Of a DNA stretch of 28,217 bases, positions 1-9,591 are shown piece after piece (positions within the stretch are counted from its first letter, which is position 1; each line of letters opens with the position of its first letter). Source of the stretch: a virus. Its lineage: Duplodnaviria > Heunggongvirae > Uroviricota > Caudoviricetes. The notes beneath the pieces are model-generated. The model saw nothing but the letters and a program-made list of their open reading frames with translations. It was not told where the DNA came from and ran no database searches. The stretch lies in IMG/VR virus record IMGVR_UViG_2802429224_000009; one strand, 5' to 3'. The position numbers were made by a program, and so were the translations under genes.

Positions 1-1005
1 TTAATCCCCCGTGGACACTGCGTGGACACTCACGCCACCTTTCAGCGGATTAAGGGCCACCGCATCCTGCAGGTAATCCGGTGCAAAATGTGCATATGCC
101 ATTGTTTGCTGAATGGTTGCGTGGCCAAGAATCTTCTGAAGCGCAATAATGTTTCCTCCGTTCATCACAAAATGGCTGGCGAACGTATGCCGCAGCACAT
201 GTGCAGCCTGGCCTTTTGGTAAATCGGGCTTAACTCTTTTCAGCGCCAAGCAGAATTCCCGGTACTTCACCTCAAACAAGCCGCCTGTTTCTCTGGTTTT
301 GATCGCCTCACAAACTGCCTGCGAAATTGGCACTGTTCTCTTTCGGCCATTTTTGGTTTCAAGAAACGTCACTCGGTTATGAACTATCTGTTCACCACGG
401 AGCTTACAGGCTTCACTCCAGCGCGCTCCTGTGCTTAAACACAAAAGAGCAACACGCCAGTAATCGCCCTCCAATGTATCGAGCAATAACGCAACTTCCT
501 TCTGTGACAGGAACGCCATTTCTCGTGGAGATACATAAAGAATAGAAATTCCCCTTACCGGATGTTCTGCATCCCAAAGACCTATTTTTTTCAGCACGGT
601 AAACATTCCGGATAACCGATTCATGTACCTGTTAGCAGATGACGGTTTCAATCCATCAGCTATCTTTTGAGAACGCCACGCGATAATTTTCAGCTTATCA
701 AGATCCACAGCCTGCATATCAGCGCCAAGCTCATTGATTATGTTGCGCAGTTGTTTTCGGTCTTCTTCCGCCTTACGCCTGTGTTGACCGTGATACATCC
801 ACCACAACTCAAGCAAATCATTTAGCGTTCGGCGATCACGGTAGCCCTGTATATATTCCCGCTTTTCAGCGTTCGCCATGATGTAGCGTTCAGTGGCCAC
901 CGCTACCGATTTTTTGTCAAATACCTTACGCACGCGCTTTCCCTTGCGTCCGTTCGGCCTGATGTCCAGCAAATAACGACCATCTTCGAGCTTCTTAATT
1001 GACAT
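1..1005 (-). CDS. int: Phage tyrosine integrase (P2 Int-like site-specific recombinase)
   Basis: Track ORF 1..1020(-); likely start is the ATG at 1005 (MSIKKLEDGRY...) preceded by GGAGGG, TAA stop at 1-3. C-terminal region carries the tyrosine-recombinase signature (ARWSE...HVLRHTFASHF...LGH...Y). Sits downstream of the repressor on the same strand, as in P2. Confidence 0.9.
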   Translation of the reverse strand: MSIKKLEDGRYLLDIRPNGRKGKRVRKVFDKKSVAVATERYIMANAEKREYIQGYRDRRTLNDLLELWWMYHGQHRRKAEEDRKQLRNIINELGADMQAVDLDKLKIIAWRSQKIADGLKPSSANRYMNRLSGMFTVLKKIGLWDAEHPVRGISILYVSPREMAFLSQKEVALLLDTLEGDYWRVALLCLSTGARWSEACKLRGEQIVHNRVTFLETKNGRKRTVPISQAVCEAIKTRETGGLFEVKYREFCLALKRVKPDLPKGQAAHVLRHTFASHFVMNGGNIIALQKILGHATIQQTMAYAHFAPDYLQDAVALNPLKGGVSVHAVSTGD

Positions 1006-1101
1006 TGCGAAGCCCTCCAATGAACCGCTCTACAATTTCTCCAGCCTCTTTCCAGCAATAATCAGACCAGACAAAGAGCAGGTCTAACCAGTTTTCTGGC
1101 C

Positions 1102-1422
1102 TTAGCGGGGTGATTTTTGGTTTGTTTCGGTTGAAACCTGATCGCCCTCCGAATCGAAGAAGCCATCAAGAGAGAGAGGCGGAGCAATCTGCCCCGTCGC
1201 AGCATTAGTTTGATTAAACATCACCCAATCCGAATACTTCCGAAAACGAGGATGATTCAAAATCAGGAGTAGCGTTTCTCCAGGTATCATTCTTCCCAAT
1301 ATTTCATAATTTTTGAGATTGTTTTGAGATACCCCTGTCACCTCTTCCATCTCTCTACGTGACAATCCCTCTGCCTCTCGAATCAGGCGAAGTTTTTCTC
1401 CAAGGCTTGATTTATGGATCAT
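1102..1422 (-). CDS. C: Immunity repressor, P2 C-like (HTH)
   Basis: Track ORF 1102..1440(-) with a GTG at 1440; the ATG at 1422 (MIHKSSLGEKLRLI...) fits the P2 C N-terminus spacing better. HTH segment LSRREMEEVTGVSQNNLKNYE; C-terminal KYSDWVMFNQ..TGQIAPPL resembles P2 C (KYTLWFMTNQIAPESGQIAPAL) from memory. Divergent from cox. Confidence 0.8.
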   Translation of the reverse strand: MIHKSSLGEKLRLIREAEGLSRREMEEVTGVSQNNLKNYEILGRMIPGETLLLILNHPRFRKYSDWVMFNQTNAATGQIAPPLSLDGFFDSEGDQVSTETNQKSPR

Positions 1423-1537
1423 ATGTGATCTAAACTCCACGATATTGGGTTACATGTAATACAAAACATTCAAATAGCCAAAATAAGCCTATATAAGCCA
1501 TTTTGGGCCATTTGGACGAATTAAGGAGATTACCACA
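1423..1537. promoter_or_regulatory. Lysogeny/lysis switch region between divergent C and cox (candidate Pe/Pc promoters and operators)
   Basis: Seen directly: perfect 10-bp palindrome TTACATGTAA (1450-1459); 10-bp-phased direct repeats ATAGCC (1474-1479), ATAAGCC (1483-1489) and ATAAGCC (1493-1499), the last two overlapping a -10-like TATATAAG; -35-like TTCAAA at 1468-1473; AAGGAG RBS at 1523-1528. Direct-repeat operators are the known P2 C binding mode. Confidence 0.55.
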
Positions 1538-1825
1538 ATGAGCGAATCAGAGCTTGAGGGGTTCATTCAGGTAGCACCATATCCACTTGAAGCGGTGCCA
1601 TATCAACTATTTGCCAAGATGATTGGTCGCAAAGAATCAACCGTCAGAACCATGATTGACGCTGCAAAGTTACCAACGATTGACTTTGTGAAACCAGGTT
1701 CAGTGAAGACGCGAGCATCAGAAAACTGGGTATATCTGCCAGCATTTAACGCAGGTATGCGCAAAGCGTTTTTTGATCAGCCGAAAGAACGCCGCGATGC
1801 ATGGTTGTTGTGGCTGGGGCTTTAA
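1538..1825 (+). CDS. cox: Cox-like excisionase / early transcriptional regulator
   Basis: 95 aa, strong RBS. Translation ...PYQLFAKMIGRKESTVRTMIDAAKLPTIDFVKPG...NWVYLPAFNAG...PKERRDAWLLWLGL closely parallels P2 Cox as recalled (...PYQEFAKLIGKSTGAVRRMIDKGKLPVID...YWVYLPAWNNG...PKEIRDGWLMWLGL). Confidence 0.85.
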   Translation: MSESELEGFIQVAPYPLEAVPYQLFAKMIGRKESTVRTMIDAAKLPTIDFVKPGSVKTRASENWVYLPAFNAGMRKAFFDQPKERRDAWLLWLGL

Positions 1826-1831
1826 TCATAA

Positions 1832-2038
1832 ATGACCAGCAATATCACCAGCGCCATTTTGGACCTTGTATTCCTAGAAGTGGGTGTAATAGCGATTTAT
1901 CTGCTTAGCAAGCTAACAGGACAAAAAGAACGCTTTATTGTTCTCAACGTTCATTACCTCGCCGCTTATGCCAGAGGTCTTTTTCCGATCACCATTGGTG
2001 CGCTGCTCATGGCGTTTGTTATTTGGCTCATCGGGTAG
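1832..2038 (+). CDS. Small hypothetical membrane protein (two predicted TM helices)
   Basis: 68-aa ORF immediately after cox; two hydrophobic stretches (ILDLVFLEVGVIAIYLL, LFPITIGALLMAFVIWLIG). Weak RBS. Confidence 0.35.
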   Translation: MTSNITSAILDLVFLEVGVIAIYLLSKLTGQKERFIVLNVHYLAAYARGLFPITIGALLMAFVIWLIG

Positions 2039-2049
2039 AGGCACGAAAA

Positions 2050-2508
2050 ATGAATAAGCAACAGCGAAATGGCAAGCCCCATAACACGGGATTTCGTCGC
2101 AATTACTTTGAAAATGGGTGTTATGCCGGGGAAGTAAATCGGCACGGAGTTTTTGACATGAAGCAACAGCGCAATTCTTCACAGCAACGCTTCCGCAACG
2201 GGGCGGAACGCCACGCTAACCGTTTCGCTACCAGTGCATCGCGTAGCAACTCTCGCTACAGCCTGAGCGAAACACACGCAACACCGGATGGCCACGCTGT
2301 AAAACAAATCGGCGAGCATGCCTGGCTGATTGAGAAAGCTGGAATCGTGGTCCACAAATGCCCACGCAATCCGTTTACCGGAAACCGCATTTTTGCATTG
2401 AGCTGCGGCGACAATCACTTCGGGCAGGATTTCACATTATACGAAGCGCTTCGCACGGTTGATCGTCTGCTTCGCGGGCAAAGTTTTATTAAACAGGCTG
2501 ATTTATAA
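2050..2508 (+). CDS. Hypothetical early protein (152 aa)
   Basis: Track ORF 2023..2508; internal ATG at 2050 (MNKQQRNGKP...) with GTAGAGG 8 nt upstream. N-terminal half rich in N/Q/R, C-terminal half more globular. No family recognised. Confidence 0.45.
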   Translation: MNKQQRNGKPHNTGFRRNYFENGCYAGEVNRHGVFDMKQQRNSSQQRFRNGAERHANRFATSASRSNSRYSLSETHATPDGHAVKQIGEHAWLIEKAGIVVHKCPRNPFTGNRIFALSCGDNHFGQDFTLYEALRTVDRLLRGQSFIKQADL

Positions 2509-2531
2509 CAGGTGCTTTATGACCAAAGAGC

Positions 2532-2798
2532 ATGCACAAGGTGTATTTATCCGTTTTATTGATTTTCGCGGTGAACTGTTATTACGCGCATCAGCCATTG
2601 ACGGAGTTGTTCCATCCGAAAAAAAACGCAGCTACTTACGTTTATCTGAACGGTACGCGCCTGACTGTGGAGCTTCCGTACCAGACCGTACGAGAAATCA
2701 TTAGCGAAGCTGAAAAGGCACGTCAGGTTAATGGCGATGAACCCTATATCGAAATTATTTGTATGGATTCAGAAGCTGAAATTCAGAAAGCAGATTAA
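2532..2798 (+). CDS. Hypothetical protein (frame uncertain)
   Basis: 88-aa ORF ending 12 nt before the RBS/ATG of the next gene (operon-like packing). An overlapping alternative frame (ATG 2519..2704, 61 aa) cannot be excluded; start unverified. Confidence 0.3.
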   Translation: MHKVYLSVLLIFAVNCYYAHQPLTELFHPKKNAATYVYLNGTRLTVELPYQTVREIISEAEKARQVNGDEPYIEIICMDSEAEIQKAD

Positions 2799-2809
2799 AG
2801 GGCATTGCG

Positions 2810-3052
2810 ATGGGCAAAGAATATAAAACTCTCATTAATAAAGCACTTGAACGATTTTATTTTCGCTTAAGTGCATCAGGCGCTCATGCTGAACGTGCAG
2901 CCCGTGACTCATTGACCAGGGCAATCCGGAGTTTGTATGACGTCGCTTTTTACGCTGATGATCTGGATGCACTTAACGAACTTTCCGAGCTGATCTGTGC
3001 CGCAGAATGCGGGGAACATATTGAACCGTATAAGCTGGGGAATATCGCATGA
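2810..3052 (+). CDS. Hypothetical protein (80 aa)
   Basis: ATG at 2810; stop TGA overlaps the ATG of the next small ORF (ATGA at 3049-3052), suggesting translational coupling. Confidence 0.45.
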   Translation: MGKEYKTLINKALERFYFRLSASGAHAERAARDSLTRAIRSLYDVAFYADDLDALNELSELICAAECGEHIEPYKLGNIA

Positions 3053-3162
3053 GTATATTTATCTCATGGCTTGTTCTGATTATTTCGGTGGCCTGCGCCA
3101 TTGGGATTATGCGAATTATTCATTCAGTAAAAAAGATTGAACGCTTTTTCACTGACGAATAA
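3049..3162 (+). CDS. Small single-pass membrane peptide (37 aa)
   Basis: Not in the ORF track (below length cut-off). My translation: MSIFISWLVLIISVACAIGIMRIIHSVKKIERFFTDE; hydrophobic core then basic tail; start overlaps the upstream stop. Confidence 0.35.
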   Translation: MSIFISWLVLIISVACAIGIMRIIHSVKKIERFFTDE

Positions 3163-3254
3163 CAGCTTAAACAAAACACCAGATTAAATAAGAAAACGTG
3201 AAAACAATCCGCACTCGCGGAGGTATTCGCACACACAAATAACGAGGATACAAA

Positions 3255-3668
3255 ATGAACGCTAAAGATACAGTCACCATCACCAAACTGAAAAAAATAT
3301 CAGAAATGGAAGATGCATTAGCCAGGCAGGCACTGAGAGAAGGACTTATTCCCTTTTATGTTCGTTCAATGGCTATAGCAGAAGTCACCGCAAGTGCTGC
3401 TGGACTTATTGAAAGCCTGAACAACGAAATCAGCACTCTCAAAGCTCAATTAGCCGGCACCAACACTTCTTCCCCCAGCATTGGGAAACGGGTCTTTATC
3501 ATCAACAACCCACAACAGGAATACATCATCCTGGCAGACCTGCAGGGGAGCTACATGATTGCTGCGGTTCCGGCAAATGAGAGCGAACCGCTGAGTGATG
3601 TACACATCATCAGACGCGACCGGATTGCGTTCATCGACACAGCAACCTCTTCCCCATTTAACGCATAA
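3255..3668 (+). CDS. Hypothetical protein (137 aa)
   Basis: ATG at 3255 with AGGA-containing RBS (aacgaggatacaaaATG); follows a ~90-bp non-coding gap, so possibly the first gene of a sub-operon. N-terminal region looks helical/coiled-coil. Confidence 0.5.
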   Translation: MNAKDTVTITKLKKISEMEDALARQALREGLIPFYVRSMAIAEVTASAAGLIESLNNEISTLKAQLAGTNTSSPSIGKRVFIINNPQQEYIILADLQGSYMIAAVPANESEPLSDVHIIRRDRIAFIDTATSSPFNA

Positions 3669-3696
3669 CCCCATGAAAAACCAAAGGAGCACAGCG

Positions 3697-3897
3697 ATGA
3701 TCAAATCATTATTAACCGCACATTTCACATCGCGCGGCGTTGAATACGACGTGGAAGACAGCCTGATCGATCACGACAGAACAGCTCCTTCCCGCAGCGA
3801 GCCGGGTGTTCATCACATCTGGCTTAAGAACGGGGAGCATTACGTGGCTACTAACGTGATGTATGTGCAGGTCCTGCGCAAAAAAGCAGGTAACTGA
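3697..3897 (+). CDS. Hypothetical protein (66 aa)
   Basis: Track ORF 3595..3897; the ATG at 3697 (MIKSLLTAHF...) has AAAGGAG 6 nt upstream and lies after the upstream stop. Confidence 0.4.
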   Translation: MIKSLLTAHFTSRGVEYDVEDSLIDHDRTAPSRSEPGVHHIWLKNGEHYVATNVMYVQVLRKKAGN

Positions 3898-3922
3898 TGA
3901 CTCAGGTACAGGAGCCACGCAG

Positions 3923-4168
3923 ATGACCATTCTGGACTACATCGCCGCCAATCCGGGTTGTAGCGGTGGAGAAATCGCCGCAGCACTGAATACCTCAACC
4001 ACAGCCATTAATGCGGAGTTACGCCGACTCTGGCGCAGCGGTTCAGTCATAAGAAAAGAGCGCAAAACAGGCGGTCGCTTTTCTTACCAGATAAACCCGA
4101 TGCCGTTCGGGTGCGGCAATCCACTTACCAACATGTTTAACCAGCTACTGAAGGAAGCCAGAGCATGA
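3923..4168 (+). CDS. Winged-helix DNA-binding protein (MarR/PadR-like fold, 81 aa)
   Basis: ATG at 3923 with AGGAG RBS; MTILDYIAANPGCSGGEIAAALNTSTTAINAELRRLWRSGSVIRKERKTGGRFSYQI is a typical wHTH layout (recognition helix, then basic wing). Stop overlaps next ATG (ATGA at 4165-4168). Confidence 0.55.
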   Translation: MTILDYIAANPGCSGGEIAAALNTSTTAINAELRRLWRSGSVIRKERKTGGRFSYQINPMPFGCGNPLTNMFNQLLKEARA

Positions 4169-4461
4169 GCGCCATCAACCACCAGGAACTACGCGAACTG
4201 GCAACTGACTTGCAACGAATGGCAACGCATCAAAAATTACTGGCGTTTCGCGCAATGCTCTCGCCGTCTGCTGTGCTGGCCCTACTGGATGAACTGGAGC
4301 ACGCCGGAACCACAGCTCCCGCCATTCGCCTGACGCTCCGCCATGAGATCGAGGATTTTTGCGCAACGCTGGAGTCATTGGGCGAACCCCAGACACCGGA
4401 AGACATGCAGCGCGAGTTACTGCAGCGCATCAACAAGGTTTTTGATTTCTTTCTCAACTAA
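4165..4461 (+). CDS. Hypothetical helical protein (98 aa), translationally coupled to the wHTH gene
   Basis: ATG at 4165 overlapping the upstream stop; acidic, predicted helical; no family recognised. Confidence 0.5.
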   Translation: MSAINHQELRELATDLQRMATHQKLLAFRAMLSPSAVLALLDELEHAGTTAPAIRLTLRHEIEDFCATLESLGEPQTPEDMQRELLQRINKVFDFFLN

Positions 4462-4475
4462 GCGGGAACCACAAC

Positions 4476-4688
4476 ATGAACAAGAAGACATGGCTTCGCG
4501 CCTATGCATGGGCGCTGGTATGCGTCCTCGTTTCTCTCATTCTGTATGTGGGGCTACTCCCCAGAATGATTTCATCAGACAGCTCCTTCCTGGTATTGCT
4601 GGGCATTTTTGTCGCCTTGCTGTACCCGGCGGGCGTTGTCCGCTTTTTCAGTAACTACATCAAAGCAATTATGGAAACCAAACAATGA
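4476..4688 (+). CDS. Small inner-membrane protein (70 aa, two TM helices), partner of the SPFH lipoprotein
   Basis: Hydrophobic segments YAWALVCVLVSLILYVGLL and FLVLLGIFVALLYPAGVV; stop TGA overlaps the ATG of the SPFH gene (ATGA at 4685-4688). Confidence 0.5.
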   Translation: MNKKTWLRAYAWALVCVLVSLILYVGLLPRMISSDSSFLVLLGIFVALLYPAGVVRFFSNYIKAIMETKQ

Positions 4689-5509
4689 AAAAACTATTAC
4701 CACTCATCCCTCTCCTGATGACCACACTTCTGGTTGGCTGTGACCGCGTGGAGCCGGGCAATGTAGGCATCAAAGTCAACAAGCTGGGCGACGACAAAGG
4801 CGTCGGCGAAGTAGTTGGCGTTGGCCGCTACTGGACAGGCTGGAATACAGAGGTTTACATCTTCCCGACCTTCAAACAAATGAAGACTTACGATGAGCCG
4901 TTCAGCTTCCAGATGAGTGACGGCACAACCATCGGCTATCACATCGGCGTGGCTTACAAGGTTGATCCATCCAAAGTTACCACAGTGTTTCAGACCTACC
5001 GCAAAGGCGTGGATGACATTACTGACACTGACCTGCGCCAGAAGATCGCCGATGCACTCAACCGACTGGCCAGCAAAATGACCACCGATAAGTTTATCGA
5101 CGGTGGCAAGTCTGAACTGCTGGATTCAGCACTTAAAGACATTCAGTCAGAAATGACACCTATCGGCATTCAGGTAATGAGCCTCTCTTATGTCGGTAAA
5201 CCGGAATATCCGCCAACCGTTATCGACAGCATTAACGCCAAAGTCACGGCAAACCAGAAAACCCTGCAACGCGAGCAGGAAGTCAAGCAACGCGAAGCAG
5301 AAGCCAACATGCTGCGCGCAGAAGCTGCCGGACAGGCCGATGCCATTCGCACAAAAGCCCAGGCTGAAGCCGACGCCATTCGTTTACGCGGTGAAGCTCT
5401 GCGCCAGAATCCCGGCGTTATGGAGCTGGAAGCGATTAACAAATGGAACGGCACGCTACCGCAATACATGACCAGTAATACCGCTGTTCCGTTTGTTCCG
5501 GTGAAGTAA
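4685..5509 (+). CDS. SPFH/band-7 (prohibitin/stomatin-like) domain lipoprotein
   Basis: 274 aa. N-terminal lipoprotein signal peptide with lipobox LLVGC (MKKLLPLIPLLMTTLLVGC); central SPFH-like core; C-terminal Ala/Glu/Arg-rich coiled coil (REAEANMLRAEAAGQADAIRTKAQAEADAIRLRGEA) typical of the family. Confidence 0.8.
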   Translation: MKKLLPLIPLLMTTLLVGCDRVEPGNVGIKVNKLGDDKGVGEVVGVGRYWTGWNTEVYIFPTFKQMKTYDEPFSFQMSDGTTIGYHIGVAYKVDPSKVTTVFQTYRKGVDDITDTDLRQKIADALNRLASKMTTDKFIDGGKSELLDSALKDIQSEMTPIGIQVMSLSYVGKPEYPPTVIDSINAKVTANQKTLQREQEVKQREAEANMLRAEAAGQADAIRTKAQAEADAIRLRGEALRQNPGVMELEAINKWNGTLPQYMTSNTAVPFVPVK

Positions 5510-5515
5510 TTCAAC

Positions 5516-5539
5516 CCGGCCAGTGAAACCGCTGGCCGG
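5516..5539 (+). terminator. Stem-loop after the SPFH gene (terminator-like, no U-tract)
   Basis: Perfect 8-bp inverted repeat CCGGCCAG (5516-5523) / CTGGCCGG (5532-5539) with an 8-nt loop, 7 nt after the stop; followed by A-rich rather than T-rich sequence. Confidence 0.3.
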
Positions 5540-5576
5540 AAATATAACGAATAAACAAAAAGCCAGAGGACAGAAC

Positions 5577-5723
5577 ATGCACAAAGCCTTTGAACGATGG
5601 ATGCGCCAGCGTTACGGCAATCGCTATGACCTGACAAGGGATGTTGATGGCTACTACTGCCGCGAAATTGTGAAACGAATGTTTGAAGTGTGGTGCCACG
5701 CTCGCGGCCTGTACGCCGTGTAA
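5577..5723 (+). CDS. Small hypothetical protein (48 aa)
   Basis: ATG at 5577 (MHKAFERWMRQRYGNRYDLT...) with GAGGA about 8 nt upstream; short, so coding status uncertain. Confidence 0.3.
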   Translation: MHKAFERWMRQRYGNRYDLTRDVDGYYCREIVKRMFEVWCHARGLYAV

Positions 5724-5862
5724 TCCGTGTCACTGCCAGAAGGTTAACCCATGTATACACAAAAAAACCGCTTGCCATGCCGTAATCAGTCAGGTTACAT
5801 TTCCGCTGCACCTCATAAAACGGGTGCCGGGATTGCAACCCCCGCTGACAACTACAGCGCAC

Positions 5863-5883
5863 AACCGCGCCAGCGGTTTTTTT
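5863..5883 (+). terminator. Candidate Rho-independent terminator
   Basis: AACCGC (5863-5868) / GCGGTT (5873-5878) stem with GCCA loop, followed by a T-run through 5883. Confidence 0.4.
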
Positions 5884-5923
5884 GTGCGTACCGTATCGCC
5901 ACGTCTTTTTCGCACACGAATTA

Positions 5924-6001
5924 TGGTGGGGCGTATGGGGCCGACTTCGGTCGGGCCGGTTTCTGTAGTTGCCGGTGGTTGCAACCCCATACGCCTCGCC
6001 A
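5924..6001. repeat. Long-range inverted repeat (about 17 bp arms) enclosing a UUCG-tetraloop hairpin; candidate structured RNA or DNA cruciform
   Basis: 5924-5940 pairs with 5985-6001 (core 11 bp GGCGTATGGGG / CCCCATACGCC perfect, extended with G-U pairs); interior holds CCGAC-TTCG-GTCGG (5941-5954). Confidence 0.45.
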
Positions 6002-6061
6002 CCCAGAATTGCAACCTCTGGATGGTGAGTTTTCAAAACTTGCAACTACAGAGGCCACATC

Positions 6062-6292
6062 ATGGCAAACCGCAAACAACAGCGCGCATACGCTGCGCGT
6101 CGTCACATCCAGACTGAAATCAACCGCAGACTTTCCCGCGCATCACGCGTCGCGCAAATCATGCACATCAATATGCTGCATGAGCACAGCCACGCACTAT
6201 CAAACATTTATTCCGCCTCTGTTTTCAGCTATCTGGCGGATGATCTGCACGAGCTTCAACAGCTCATCCAGCAGCAAAACAAACTCCATTAA
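6062..6292 (+). CDS. Hypothetical basic protein (76 aa)
   Basis: ATG at 6062 with AGAGG RBS; arginine-rich N-terminus (MANRKQQRAYAARRHIQTEINRRLSR). Confidence 0.45.
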   Translation: MANRKQQRAYAARRHIQTEINRRLSRASRVAQIMHINMLHEHSHALSNIYSASVFSYLADDLHELQQLIQQQNKLH

Positions 6293-6364
6293 TTCCTGTT
6301 CCGGGCCTTTCCTGCACCTTGCGGCGGGAGGCCTTCGCACATCTGTAGTAAAGAGAATTGCAGC

Positions 6365-6754
6365 ATGATTGACCGTCACGACTTCGTAAAATGGGTGCGC
6401 ACACAGGACACCCGTCTGGCCCCAAAACTTCAGGCAATGTTTGATTTTTATCTCCGTGCCCGCGCCAGCCGGGCACGCACCACAAAACCGGAGAACGCAG
6501 ACACCCTTTATTTCACCGTGGACGACTGTTACCGCGTAGCCTTCACGCCACAAGGTCTGGCCCTGTACACCCTGACACCACACGGCGACTCCCTGCTGGC
6601 GTATTACAACTCCCCGGCCTCCGTATTTGCGGCAATGCTGGCGCATCGTACCGCTGGCGGGTGTGCCTCGCTGAGTGAATACACCACTGAATTTAACCGC
6701 CTTTCCGTCATCTTCTCGCAGGAGTGGCAGCGCGTGACGGGATACCAGCCATGA
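6365..6754 (+). CDS. Hypothetical protein (129 aa) translationally coupled to gene A
   Basis: Stop TGA at 6752-6754 overlaps the ATG of the replication gene at 6751. Confidence 0.5.
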   Translation: MIDRHDFVKWVRTQDTRLAPKLQAMFDFYLRARASRARTTKPENADTLYFTVDDCYRVAFTPQGLALYTLTPHGDSLLAYYNSPASVFAAMLAHRTAGGCASLSEYTTEFNRLSVIFSQEWQRVTGYQP

Positions 6755-9591
6755 GTGAGTTTGCATGGAGCTGGAATGAACCGCAGCCAGCTATTGATCC
6801 GGACGACTTCGCGAACTTCAGCCGGTTGCCAAAAACCGGACTGCAACGCGCCATTCGTTACTACTATGAGGCGGACAAAAAGGCTCAGGAAGAACAGGAT
6901 GCGAAGGAAGAAGCCTTTTTCGCACAATCCGCCATGGGTAAAAAACTCATGGCATCCCTTGAGGAAGCCGGGCAACGCGAAAAACTGATAAAAAACATCA
7001 TCAGTAAGCGCCAGGAAATAAAGCAAGACCCGGTGGCCTGCGCCTTTGCCGAACTGAAGGCACTTCCCGTTTATCTGCGAGACCCCCTGAGCCGCCGCCT
7101 CTCTTTTTTACGTAAGAAGCAGGAATCTGACCGCCAGAAAGGAAAAAACGCCAGGCTGGCAGAACGCTATGCACAAGGAACCCTGCTCAAAATATTCAAA
7201 CGTCTGAAACGCACTGACGGACGCTGGCTGACACCGTGTTATTGCTCCCTTGCCGGACGCGAACGCCTGGACGATTTGCTTTACCTGCCGCAGCTCAACA
7301 AACACCAGATACAGACGCTGGCCACCATGACGGCGGCGATGTTCAGCAGCACTTTTGAAACACTCTGCGATAACTTTGGCGCGACTGATGGCGAGCTGAC
7401 CATGAAAATTGCGCTGAAGGCGTATCAGATGCTGGCCCGCATGGCGTTACATCTGCACACCATGCCGCCGCATTACGAAGCACTGAGAACGGACAAAGAC
7501 CGGAAGAACGCACCGAATACGGAGCTGCTGCCGGGTGCCATCCTTCGCCTGACCTGTGCGGAATGGTGGAAACACAAACTGTGGCTTTTACGTTGCGAGT
7601 GGCGGGAAGAACAACTCCGTGCCGCCTGTCTGGTTTCCAGAAAAACATCACCCTATCTGAGCCAGGACGCGTTAAGCGAGTTTCGCGCACAGCGCGAGAA
7701 AACACGCGATTTTCTGAAAAGTTTCATGCTGGAAAATGAAGACGGGTTCACGATTGATCTCGAGACAGTGTATTACGCGGGAGTAAGTAACCCGGTTCAC
7801 CGTAAGGCAGAAATGATGGCCACCATGAAGGGGCTGGAACTTCTGGCCGAAGCCCGTGGTGACAAAGCGGTGTTTCTGACTGTCACCTGCCCGTCAAAAT
7901 ACCACGCAACAACGGAGAACGGTCATCCGAACCCCAAATGGAACGGGGCCACCATGCGCGACTCCAGCGATTACCTGGTTAACACGTTTTTTGCGGCGGT
8001 CCGCAAAAAACTGAACCGCGACGGCCTGCGCTGGTATGGCATCCGCACGGTGGAGCCTCACCATGACGGCACCGTGCACTGGCATATGATGGTCTTTGCT
8101 CATCCGGAAGAAATCGACAGCATCGTGGCCATCACCCGCGATATTGCCATTCAGGAAGATCGTCACGAACTGGGCGATGATATTACTCCGCGCTTTAAGG
8201 CGGAGTATGTCGACGGCTCAAAAGGCACACCAACCAGCTATATCGCGACCTACATCGGAAAAAACCTGGACAGCCGCGCCGTAGATGGCATCGACCCGAA
8301 AACGGGCAAGCCACGCGTTGACCACGAAACCGGAAAATCAATGGCCGAGAGCGTGGAGCGCGCCATTGGCTGGGCGCGTCTTCACCGGGTCCGCCAGTTC
8401 CAGTTCTTTGGCATCCCCTCCCGTCAGGTATGGCGTGAACTCCGCCGCCTTGCCAGCCAGATGGCACGCAACCCGGAAGGCCCGCAACGGCTGAAGGATG
8501 ATGCAATGGATGCGGTACTCGCTGCCGCTGATGCCGGGTGTTTTGCCTCCTACATTGAAAAACAGGGCGGCGTACTTGTTCCACGTAAAGACTACCTGAT
8601 TCGCACCGCCTACGACCTCGCAGATGAGCTGAACGATTACGGCGAACAGAGCGTACAGATTTACGGGATCTGGTCACCACTCATCGGGGAATCCTCCCGT
8701 GTGTGCACGCATCCGGATAACTGGAAGCTGGTAAGACGCAAACCGGAAGCGGAAGACAGCGCCCGCGAAAATGGTTTTGACCTTCAGGGCGGCCCTGCCG
8801 CCCCTTGGACTCGTGGCAATAACTGTCCCCGTGTACAGGAAACGAACAACAACGGGACAGAACAGCCGGAAGAACGGCCAGCACTGTGGCCGCAGCTCCC
8901 TGACGGCGTTGAAGTGAATGAATGGATGCGCTCACTGAAACGGCACGAACGCCGGGCGCTGATGCGTTCGCTGCGTGACAAACAGGCCAAAAACAGCAGT
9001 GCTGAAATGCAGAACTGGACACAGAGCCGCAAACAGCCACAGCCTTTGCCTGATAACCACGAGTTACTCGCTAAAGAATGGCGGGAGTCTGCTGAATCTC
9101 TCGGCCTGCATATCGGTGAACAGCAGATGCAGCACCTGTTACGGGGCGGCAGTCTGTACGTTGACGGCAGCATCATTGCACCGCAGGGATTTGAAATTGT
9201 ACGCAAACCGGATACCCGCCCGGACAGCCGAATCACGCAGCTCTGGCAACGCCTGAGCCGTAACCACGGCGTAAGCAGCACGGAGATCCGCCATAACCCG
9301 GTCGCCAGCTATCTGGAACAACTAGGGGCATCAGACCCTGAAGCCGCCGCACACCTGGCATCCACACTTCAGCAGGACCAGAACACCATGAAAACCCCCG
9401 TTACCGTGCTTTCTGACATGCTGCGCGCCATCCGTGACGCAGAGCATGCACAAAGAATCAGTGAAACCACTGAACGCGCCCGCCGCAAAGCAGACCTGCT
9501 GCGGGGTGGCCTGACCAGCGGAAACAAAAAACAGACAGAAACGGGATTCACAAATCCCGTAAATGAGCAAAAAACGCGCCGCGATATATGA
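6751..9591 (+). CDS. A: Rolling-circle replication initiation endonuclease, P2 gpA family
   Basis: Track ORF 6724..9591; probable start is the ATG at 6751 (MSEFAWSWNEPQ...). Carries the HUH-type motif (HDGTVHWHMMVF) and paired catalytic tyrosines (TSYIATYIGKN) characteristic of gpA-family initiators. At 946 aa it is longer than P2 gpA as I recall it. Confidence 0.9.
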   Translation: MSEFAWSWNEPQPAIDPDDFANFSRLPKTGLQRAIRYYYEADKKAQEEQDAKEEAFFAQSAMGKKLMASLEEAGQREKLIKNIISKRQEIKQDPVACAFAELKALPVYLRDPLSRRLSFLRKKQESDRQKGKNARLAERYAQGTLLKIFKRLKRTDGRWLTPCYCSLAGRERLDDLLYLPQLNKHQIQTLATMTAAMFSSTFETLCDNFGATDGELTMKIALKAYQMLARMALHLHTMPPHYEALRTDKDRKNAPNTELLPGAILRLTCAEWWKHKLWLLRCEWREEQLRAACLVSRKTSPYLSQDALSEFRAQREKTRDFLKSFMLENEDGFTIDLETVYYAGVSNPVHRKAEMMATMKGLELLAEARGDKAVFLTVTCPSKYHATTENGHPNPKWNGATMRDSSDYLVNTFFAAVRKKLNRDGLRWYGIRTVEPHHDGTVHWHMMVFAHPEEIDSIVAITRDIAIQEDRHELGDDITPRFKAEYVDGSKGTPTSYIATYIGKNLDSRAVDGIDPKTGKPRVDHETGKSMAESVERAIGWARLHRVRQFQFFGIPSRQVWRELRRLASQMARNPEGPQRLKDDAMDAVLAAADAGCFASYIEKQGGVLVPRKDYLIRTAYDLADELNDYGEQSVQIYGIWSPLIGESSRVCTHPDNWKLVRRKPEAEDSARENGFDLQGGPAAPWTRGNNCPRVQETNNNGTEQPEERPALWPQLPDGVEVNEWMRSLKRHERRALMRSLRDKQAKNSSAEMQNWTQSRKQPQPLPDNHELLAKEWRESAESLGLHIGEQQMQHLLRGGSLYVDGSIIAPQGFEIVRKPDTRPDSRITQLWQRLSRNHGVSSTEIRHNPVASYLEQLGASDPEAAAHLASTLQQDQNTMKTPVTVLSDMLRAIRDAEHAQRISETTERARRKADLLRGGLTSGNKKQTETGFTNPVNEQKTRRDI

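Follow-up and report, generated by a model that had tools for sequence, protein, structure and literature searches.

The characterised relative of one of the genes described here is ea22 of phage lambda, whose product, an exo-xis protein, is pro-lysogenic and raises host survival after infection, an effect reported for the lambda and Phi24B proteins only (PMC7093339). Lambda Ea22 is a tetramer of modular build, each chain having an N-terminal domain, a coiled coil and a C-terminal domain (PMC7093339, PMC10834534). In phage P88, four consecutive genes, gp09 to gp12, are annotated as a winged helix-turn-helix protein, an ead/Ea22-like protein, a membrane protein and a lipoprotein; these are uncharacterised annotations. 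We analysed a stretch of 28,217 nucleotides (nt) of viral DNA (IMG/VR record IMGVR_UViG_2802429224_000009, hereafter the window), which is a P2-family prophage of the P88 type (Xuanwuvirus, Peduoviridae). It carries the equivalents of these four P88 genes in the same order, and this report is concerned with the first two, coding for an 81-amino-acid (aa) winged-helix protein and a 98-aa protein. With a probability of about 70%, they are accessory genes of a P88-like early operon, a winged-helix gene followed by a gene for a minimal Ea22-like protein, and constitute neither a toxin-antitoxin system nor a regulator with its SPFH target genes.

The pair and its immediate neighbours are as follows:

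3697-3897, plus strand: 66-aa open reading frame (ORF), PHROG 3459 with no assigned function, 44% identical to P88 gp08
3898-3922, plus strand: 25-nt spacer, holding the Shine-Dalgarno AGGAG of the winged-helix gene
3923-4168, plus strand: winged-helix gene, 81 aa, ATG at 3923 and TGA at 4166-4168, equivalent of P88 gp09
4165-4461, plus strand: 98-aa gene, PHROG 4144, ATG at 4165 and TAA at 4459-4461, equivalent of P88 gp10
4476-4688, plus strand: 70-aa membrane protein gene, PHROG 1130, first gene of an optional two-gene cassette
4685-5509, plus strand: SPFH/Band 7 lipoprotein gene, 274 aa (Pfam Band_7, E-value 1e-30), second gene of the cassette

The limits of the two genes, as proposed by an earlier sequence-only reading of the window, were confirmed, together with their 4-nt ATGA overlap at 4165-4168. 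The gap before the membrane/SPFH pair, put at 15 nt by that reading, measures 14 nt (4462-4475), and the membrane protein and SPFH lipoprotein genes overlap by an ATGA as well. Both members of the pair are real, constrained coding genes and not chance ORFs, because each is under purifying selection: across related viral contigs, the mean pairwise ratio of nonsynonymous to synonymous substitutions (dN/dS) came to 0.16 among 46 distinct sequences of the winged-helix gene and to 0.20 among 61 distinct sequences of the 98-aa gene. Gene order was examined in 103 unique P88-like contexts from IMG/VR. The 66-aa ORF directly precedes the winged-helix gene in 100 of these, and in 98 of the 100 its stop codon overlaps the winged-helix start in an ATGA; the 25-nt spacer of the window occurs in 2 of the 100 contexts only and is common to Escherichia coli strain A36. 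The ATGA overlap between the winged-helix and 98-aa genes is kept in 79 of the 83 contexts having both, a degree of conservation that supports the translational coupling suggested previously.

The 98-aa protein is best called a minimal Ead/Ea22-like protein, in which the N-module of lambda Ea22 is joined directly to a mobile 45-aa C-module. Its residues 1-47 align with residues 1-45 of lambda Ea22 at 47% identity over 47 residues (BLASTP, E-value 3e-6), and comparison of the N-module with lambda Ea22 by hhalign gave a probability of 93% and an E-value of 3e-7. The same module is 46-57% identical to the N-termini of Ea22-like proteins of Stx phages, and it is also homologous to the N-termini of Citrobacter Ead/Ea22-like proteins. 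The Pfam model Ead_Ea22 (PF13935), whose family includes lambda Ea22 and P22 Ead, covered residues 21-49 only, with a score of 21.5 bits against a cut-off of 27 bits; some relatives of 90% identity do have a precomputed PF13935 match. The remaining residues, ~50-98 (4312-4458 in the window), form a separate C-module, EIxDFCxxL...GEPxTPExMQxELLxRI..VF, which has a conserved cysteine and a GEPETPE loop and corresponds to no Pfam family. Its 45-aa pattern, LVESEIADFCAGL.SPGEPETPEEMQ.ELL.RI..VF, caps otherwise unrelated short phage proteins, several of them with Ead/Ea22 hallmarks. In phage Chuche it follows a different, basic N-terminus in a gene lying directly after the 66-aa ORF, and no winged-helix gene is present. 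An exhaustive scan of 1.84 billion representative proteins returned only 55 matches to the 98-aa protein, split between matches to the N-module only and to the C-module only, and a protein 100% identical to it was found in Escherichia sp. isolate MOD1-EC5948. The protein is acidic (isoelectric point, pI, 5.1). Its AlphaFold2 model is all-helical, in agreement with the helical character noted by the sequence-only reading, and of low confidence (predicted local distance difference test, pLDDT, 64). Searches for the fold with this low-confidence model gave no match with E <0.26 in BFVD, and a profile search of PDB gave chance coiled-coil matches only.

Compared with lambda ea22, the 98-aa gene is likewise an early-transcribed accessory gene whose product is modular, with exchangeable C-termini (PMC7093339, PMC10834534). 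The two proteins differ in that an unrelated 45-aa C-module replaces the coiled coil and alpha-beta C-terminal domain of lambda Ea22; the 98-aa protein ends in FDFFLN, without the coiled coil, C-terminal domain or K/RGE terminus of Ea22 proteins. The upstream gene is different too, being in lambda that of the TraR-like Orf73 (PMC9239242); lambda is not known to have a winged-helix gene at this place.

The winged-helix fold of the 81-aa protein, also put forward by the earlier reading, is supported because Pfam scores, AlphaFold2 topology and Foldseek matches agree. Pfam HTH_24 scored 29 bits (cut-off 21.9) and MarR_2 29.6 bits (cut-off 27); MarR itself (PF01047) scored 17.6 bits, under its cut-off of 24.6 bits. 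The AlphaFold2 model (pLDDT 84.5) has the topology H-H-H-beta-beta-H, with predicted helices at residues 3-9, 15-22 and 26-39, strands at 42-46 and 53-57 forming the wing, and a C-terminal helix at 67-80. Foldseek matched this model to ArsR/SmtB, MarR/MepR/SlyA and Z-alpha structures with a probability of 1.0, an agreement that holds at the level of the domain only. The protein is basic (pI 9.9), with basic residues in helix 3 and in the wing.

The three-helix bundle and the beta-hairpin wing are common to this protein and to MarR/ArsR factors (MepR, SlyA, SmtB/CzrA and E. coli YgaV, PDB 3cuo), and its C-terminal helix occupies the position of ArsR alpha5. Foldseek template-modelling scores against MarR/ArsR structures were about 0.6-0.67, normalised to the query, and the whole-chain root-mean-square deviation was high, at ~9 Angstrom, owing to a different placement of the C-terminal helix. 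MarR proper, in contrast, has ~140-150 aa with N- and C-terminal dimerisation helices, and the 81-aa protein is without these flanking helices, as it is without ArsR alpha1 and the metal-site residues. The database name "MarR family" is therefore a domain-level label only for a protein of 81 aa with one extra C-terminal helix and a PF01047 score under the cut-off. Searches for a more specific identity, by sequence and fold in PDB and in BFVD, gave generic domains of the MarR/ArsR/FeoC/PapI/Z-alpha type, and the best viral fold match (BFVD) was a member of the protein's own family, from Serratia phage Eta.

Members of this family occur only in prophages of Enterobacteriaceae. The 223 relatives retrieved by a profile search, from prophages of Escherichia, Citrobacter, Salmonella, Klebsiella, Raoultella and Serratia, are all stand-alone proteins with a length of 76-103 aa, none of them characterised. 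In the family alignment, which spans 26-45% identity, conservation is highest in the C-terminal tail and not in the recognition helix; in this tail P61, G63, N66, P67, F72, N73 and L76 are invariant, and the helix motif PFGxxNPLxxMFNQLL provides the hallmark of the family. Since conservation peaks in this tail, it points to a putative dimerisation or docking helix. Most likely, the 81-aa protein is a small DNA-binding protein made within the early operon, and we infer that it would act in trans as a dimer. The loss of an N-terminal domain had been considered, PHROG 19053 and 1687 matching the winged-helix region C-terminally, and was dropped since all 223 relatives, bar miscalled or fused ORFs, fall within the above size range. 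Lambdoid members of the family sit just after homologues of YfdP/Q/R; YfdS and YfdT of E. coli K-12 CPS-53 were compared for this reason, and neither the winged-helix protein nor the 98-aa protein showed any similarity to them.

The larger setting of the pair is given by the following genes, taken from the ORF list of the window:

1-1020, minus strand: integrase
1102-1440, minus strand: C-type repressor
1538-1825, plus strand: cox-like gene
6724-9591, plus strand: gpA replication endonuclease, at the end of a long series of small rightward ORFs

The winged-helix and 98-aa genes sit on the early strand between the cox-like gene and gpA, in a position syntenic with P88 and A36. Both would belong to a long rightward early operon running from the cox-like gene to the gpA endonuclease gene. 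They would have no promoter of their own, because almost no relative has intergenic DNA ahead of the winged-helix gene, and would be translated as a coupled chain from the 66-aa ORF through the winged-helix gene to the 98-aa gene. By analogy with lambda Ea22, the pair probably tunes the early lysis/lysogeny or host-takeover phase. A consensus scan for sigma-70-like sites found none between 1000 and 5771, a weak negative, because the scan also missed the early and repressor promoters expected near 1440-1540 and is to be regarded as insensitive. The only promoter-like site in 1000-7000 lies at 5772-5801 and ends 7 nt before a match to the isrK RNA, which marks the downstream end of the protein-coding stretch holding the pair.

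Downstream of the SPFH cassette, isrK and a C4 RNA lie in a 338-nt 'non-coding' gap that follows a 48-aa ORF:

5808-5883, plus strand: isrK-family small RNA, Rfam RF01394, 60.1 bits (gathering score 50)
5863-5878: terminator-like hairpin of isrK, an intrinsic terminator within the isrK match
5919-6006, plus strand: C4-type antisense RNA, Rfam RF01695, 81.1 bits (gathering score 45)
6062-6292: 76-aa ORF, Pfam 'Derepression protein family' PF25738, 32.9 bits (cut-off 27)

We counted which of these elements travel with the pair in the 82 contexts in which the complete interval from the winged-helix gene to gpA was on the contig:

98-aa gene, isrK, C4 and derepression ORF, without the SPFH cassette: 38 of 82 contexts
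98-aa gene, isrK, C4 and derepression ORF, with the membrane/SPFH cassette: 27 of 82 contexts
none of the 98-aa gene, isrK, C4, derepression ORF and SPFH cassette: 16 of 82 contexts, for example phage 520873
isrK, C4 and derepression ORF, with the 98-aa gene missing: 1 of 82 contexts

The 98-aa gene is present in 65 of the 82 contexts and missing in 17, and a full-length 98-aa gene without the winged-helix gene was never seen in the P88-like set. The derepression ORF occurs together with isrK and C4 in all of the 66 complete contexts carrying them. On these counts, the backbone unit consists of the 66-aa ORF and the winged-helix gene, an optional block begins with the 98-aa gene and also comprises isrK, C4 and the derepression ORF, and the SPFH pair is a separate, further optional insertion. 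Of the 65 contexts with a 98-aa gene, 27 (~40%) have this insertion, placed between that gene and isrK.

The succession of a winged-helix gene and an Ead/Ea22-like gene is not peculiar to P88-like prophages; lambdoid prophages of Escherichia, Citrobacter, Klebsiella and Serratia have it in their early accessory regions. In Stx1-converting phages the winged-helix gene is followed by a gene for a 100-aa membrane protein and then by genes for Ea22-like proteins of 209 aa and 137 aa, which carry the N-module of the 98-aa protein; an Ead/Ea22-like gene was found within 1.5 kb of the winged-helix gene in 37 of the 38 unique contexts of this type. In Klebsiella prophages of the RothC type, for which neighbours were counted by running phmmer on ORFs of all frames, the winged-helix gene stands after the replication genes, and an Ead/Ea22-like gene comes directly next in 61 of 70 unique contexts. 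In 46 of the 61, this Ead-like gene starts at an ATG located 4 nt ahead of the stop of the winged-helix gene; its N-terminus is constant and the remainder highly variable. The same succession is found in Serratia phage Eta and in Citrobacter prophages. In Salmonella a PAPS-reductase-like gene intervenes, and the next ORF ends in an Ea22-type GVKGE terminus. The best reading of these arrangements is that the winged-helix and Ead/Ea22-like genes form a recurrent, early-expressed accessory duo.

Another gene that often lies downstream of the winged-helix gene in lambdoid prophages codes for a protein of 86-105 aa with an N-terminal transmembrane helix followed by KKWNKRRKQ... It was found within 1.5 kb of the winged-helix gene in 34 of 38 Stx1-type and 22 of 70 RothC-type contexts. 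A Citrobacter ORF of 88 aa at the same position is unrelated to it.

Several points weigh against the reading of the pair as an accessory duo with an Ea22-like role. The contexts within a lineage are close relatives, so that in effect only about four or five lineages count as independent observations, and Ead/Ea22-like genes are common in such regions, so that their adjacency to the winged-helix gene could partly reflect a base rate. The functional step rests on a homology of 45 residues to the least understood domain of lambda Ea22, the model of the 98-aa protein is of low confidence and its fold search returned nothing, and the genes may have an internal promoter, the promoter scan being insensitive. 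Finally, the surface residues of the recognition helix differ between winged-helix subfamilies, and DNA binding by the winged-helix protein is therefore not assured.

A closer association of the two products may also be envisaged, and we regard it as unlikely, if still worth attention. The winged-helix and Ead/Ea22-like proteins would then be a true interacting two-component module, held together for example by the conserved C-terminal helix, in which the Ead/Ea22-like partner carries an exchangeable C-terminal 'cargo'; the module would act on immunity, on host takeover or on the choice between lysis and lysogeny, perhaps in concert with isrK, C4 and the derepression ORF. Four or five divergent lineages do show the gene order, often with the 4-nt overlap, conservation within the winged-helix family is highest in the C-terminal tail, and the RothC-type Ead-like genes keep their N-terminus and vary elsewhere. 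Moreover, isrK, C4 and the derepression ORF accompany the 98-aa gene in 65 of 65 P88-like contexts and are absent from 16 of the 17 contexts without it. This last co-occurrence, however, may stem from a single deletion lineage. The Ead/Ea22-like N-modules downstream of the winged-helix gene are of different, non-homologous types in different lineages, which argues against a common docking partner, and the two genes may be parted by a small membrane protein gene (Stx1-type, Citrobacter) or by the PAPS-reductase-like gene of Salmonella. Most phage genes with an Ead/Ea22 N-module have no winged-helix neighbour (63 phage records with the N-module against 30 with the winged-helix gene), and the winged-helix gene in turn persists without the 98-aa gene. 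It is therefore doubtful that P2-like and lambdoid prophages of Enterobacteriaceae share a conserved two-protein module in which the winged-helix protein docks to, or regulates, Ea22-type proteins with swapped C-terminal cargo. If true, it would give the Ea22 family a partner and, in the 98-aa protein, a tractable minimal member.

Far less probable is a type II toxin-antitoxin-like pair, in which the winged-helix protein would neutralise a toxic 98-aa protein and autoregulate the pair; an antitoxin-like role had been offered as one option by the sequence-only reading and did not hold up. Type II toxin-antitoxin operons with HTH antitoxins likewise have small overlapping genes with that of the DNA-binding protein first, and the two products make a basic/acidic charge pair. 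In addition, every full-length 98-aa gene of the P88-like set is accompanied by the winged-helix gene, although the reverse does not hold (17 of 82 contexts, including phage 520873). Gene position explains this asymmetry: the interval from the winged-helix gene to gpA is a variable block, which includes the 98-aa gene and has the winged-helix gene at its edge; moreover, each of the two modules of the 98-aa protein is found elsewhere without a winged-helix gene. The acidic 98-aa protein matched no toxin, antitoxin or defence family in Pfam, NCBIfam, PADLOC or PHROGs, where the 81-aa protein matched generic winged-helix models only, and its characterised relative, lambda Ea22, has an effect favourable to the host (PMC7093339). 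The start/stop overlap seen in 98 of 100 contexts also leaves no space for an autoregulated promoter. Unlike type II toxin-antitoxin systems, the pair has no promoter/operator of its own, no recognisable toxin and no obligate co-occurrence, and it is embedded in a series of coupled early genes.

The membrane/SPFH pair has a history of its own. The lipoprotein is 96% and the membrane protein 48.5% identical to the products of adjacent genes of a P1-like phage, in which the pair lies among tRNA genes, upstream of a DnaB-like helicase gene; the P1 counterparts are presumably upl and plp. In phiP27 and Stx2 phages the lipoprotein gene is located near int/xis, and some records label its product 'serine protease'. 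Since P1-like, phiP27 and Stx2 phages have the SPFH lipoprotein and no winged-helix gene, the cassette moves independently of that gene, and the pair is an independent, self-contained mobile cassette. No SPFH neighbour was seen beside the lambdoid winged-helix family members in the contexts examined. The compact, co-regulated four-gene unit of the sequence-only reading survives in part: the genes are co-oriented and tightly packed, and their co-transcription is likely, but the unit is a mosaic juxtaposition and not a conserved one, because the SPFH pair is present in 27 of 82 contexts and occurs alone in other phages.

That the winged-helix protein is a dedicated transcriptional regulator of these four genes, including the membrane/SPFH pair, and under autonomous control, is the least probable of the explanations, for although the genes share a strand, have 14-nt and overlapping junctions and adjoin in P88 and A36 as they do here, the cassette and the winged-helix gene each occur without the other in the phages described above, the winged-helix start overlaps the stop of the 66-aa ORF in nearly all relatives, the spacer replacing this overlap in the window holds a Shine-Dalgarno only, no promoter-like site was found ahead of either gene pair (in the insensitive scan), and the genes have the appearance of simple members of the long early operon, the arrangement that the sequence-only reading had itself named as contrary to its proposal.

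As accessory genes of a well-known prophage type, both already annotated publicly (winged-helix, ead/Ea22-like), the two genes are in themselves of small importance. The features worth following up are only the recurrent winged-helix/Ead-Ea22 pairing and the conserved C-terminal tail, and the 98-aa protein with its recurrent winged-helix neighbour is possibly a simpler handle on the mechanism of the lambda protein Ea22. The comparative map, which separates the backbone from the optional block of 98-aa gene, isrK, C4 and derepression ORF and from the SPFH insertion, helps annotation, as in the case of a 205-aa mis-call described below.

Over the 2.7 kb around the pair, the window is ~90-92% identical in DNA to phage P88 and to many E. 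coli prophages. Identity to the P88 proteins gp09, gp10, gp11 and gp12 is 97.5%, 87.8%, 83.6% and 96.7%, respectively. The P88 pair has the same order and operon, the ATGA overlap and then the same membrane/SPFH pair. P88 differs from the window in four respects: a 67-aa ORF upstream overlaps gp09 by an ATGA where the window has the 25-nt spacer, gp10 has 104 aa and not 98 aa, gp10 overlaps gp11 where the window has the 14-nt spacer, and a 137-aa ORF present in the window is lacking. The same four genes stand side by side in E. coli A36 as well, and among 5,426 complete E. coli genomes the whole arrangement is found in this strain alone. The region upstream of the 66-aa ORF contains two further ORFs:

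3049-3162: 37-aa membrane ORF, homologue of P88 gp07
3255-3668: 137-aa ORF, PHROG 9338, no Pfam match

The 137-aa ORF is an optional insertion ahead of the 66-aa ORF. Its segment is locally fast-evolving or recombinant, because it is 68% identical to its A36 counterpart, compared with 91-100% for the flanking genes. The intergenic stretch 3163-3254 is kept whether the 137-aa or the 66-aa ORF comes next. Within it, at ~3198-3230, lies a hairpin with the core TCCGC-ACTC-GCGGA, in which relatives show a swap of C-G to T-A (RNA fold z-score -2.9).

The isrK and C4 RNAs are also found in P88, A36 and phage 705R2. In the window, C4 bases 5962-5972 are perfectly complementary to 6042-6052, a segment that abuts and overlaps the Shine-Dalgarno of the derepression-family ORF, and the 76-aa product may be an antirepressor-like protein under C4 control. 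The whole looks like an RNA-based switch of the P1 c4-icd-ant or Gifsy-1 isrK kind, placed in a P2-like early operon ahead of the derepression ORF and gpA, where it bounds on the downstream side the stretch that holds the pair. TTGCAAC repeats at 5827-6056 were considered as binding sites of the winged-helix protein and rejected; they lie in isrK, C4 and their target, and phages exist that have the winged-helix gene and lack these RNAs. In phage vB_EcoM-705R2 (ON470623.1), a coding sequence at 4075-4692, annotated as a 205-aa 'hypothetical protein', is probably a mis-call over RNA genes, because it lies across Rfam matches to isrK (4132-4206) and C4 (4242-4329). Long spurious ORFs likewise cross the corresponding region of the window, at 5683-6368.

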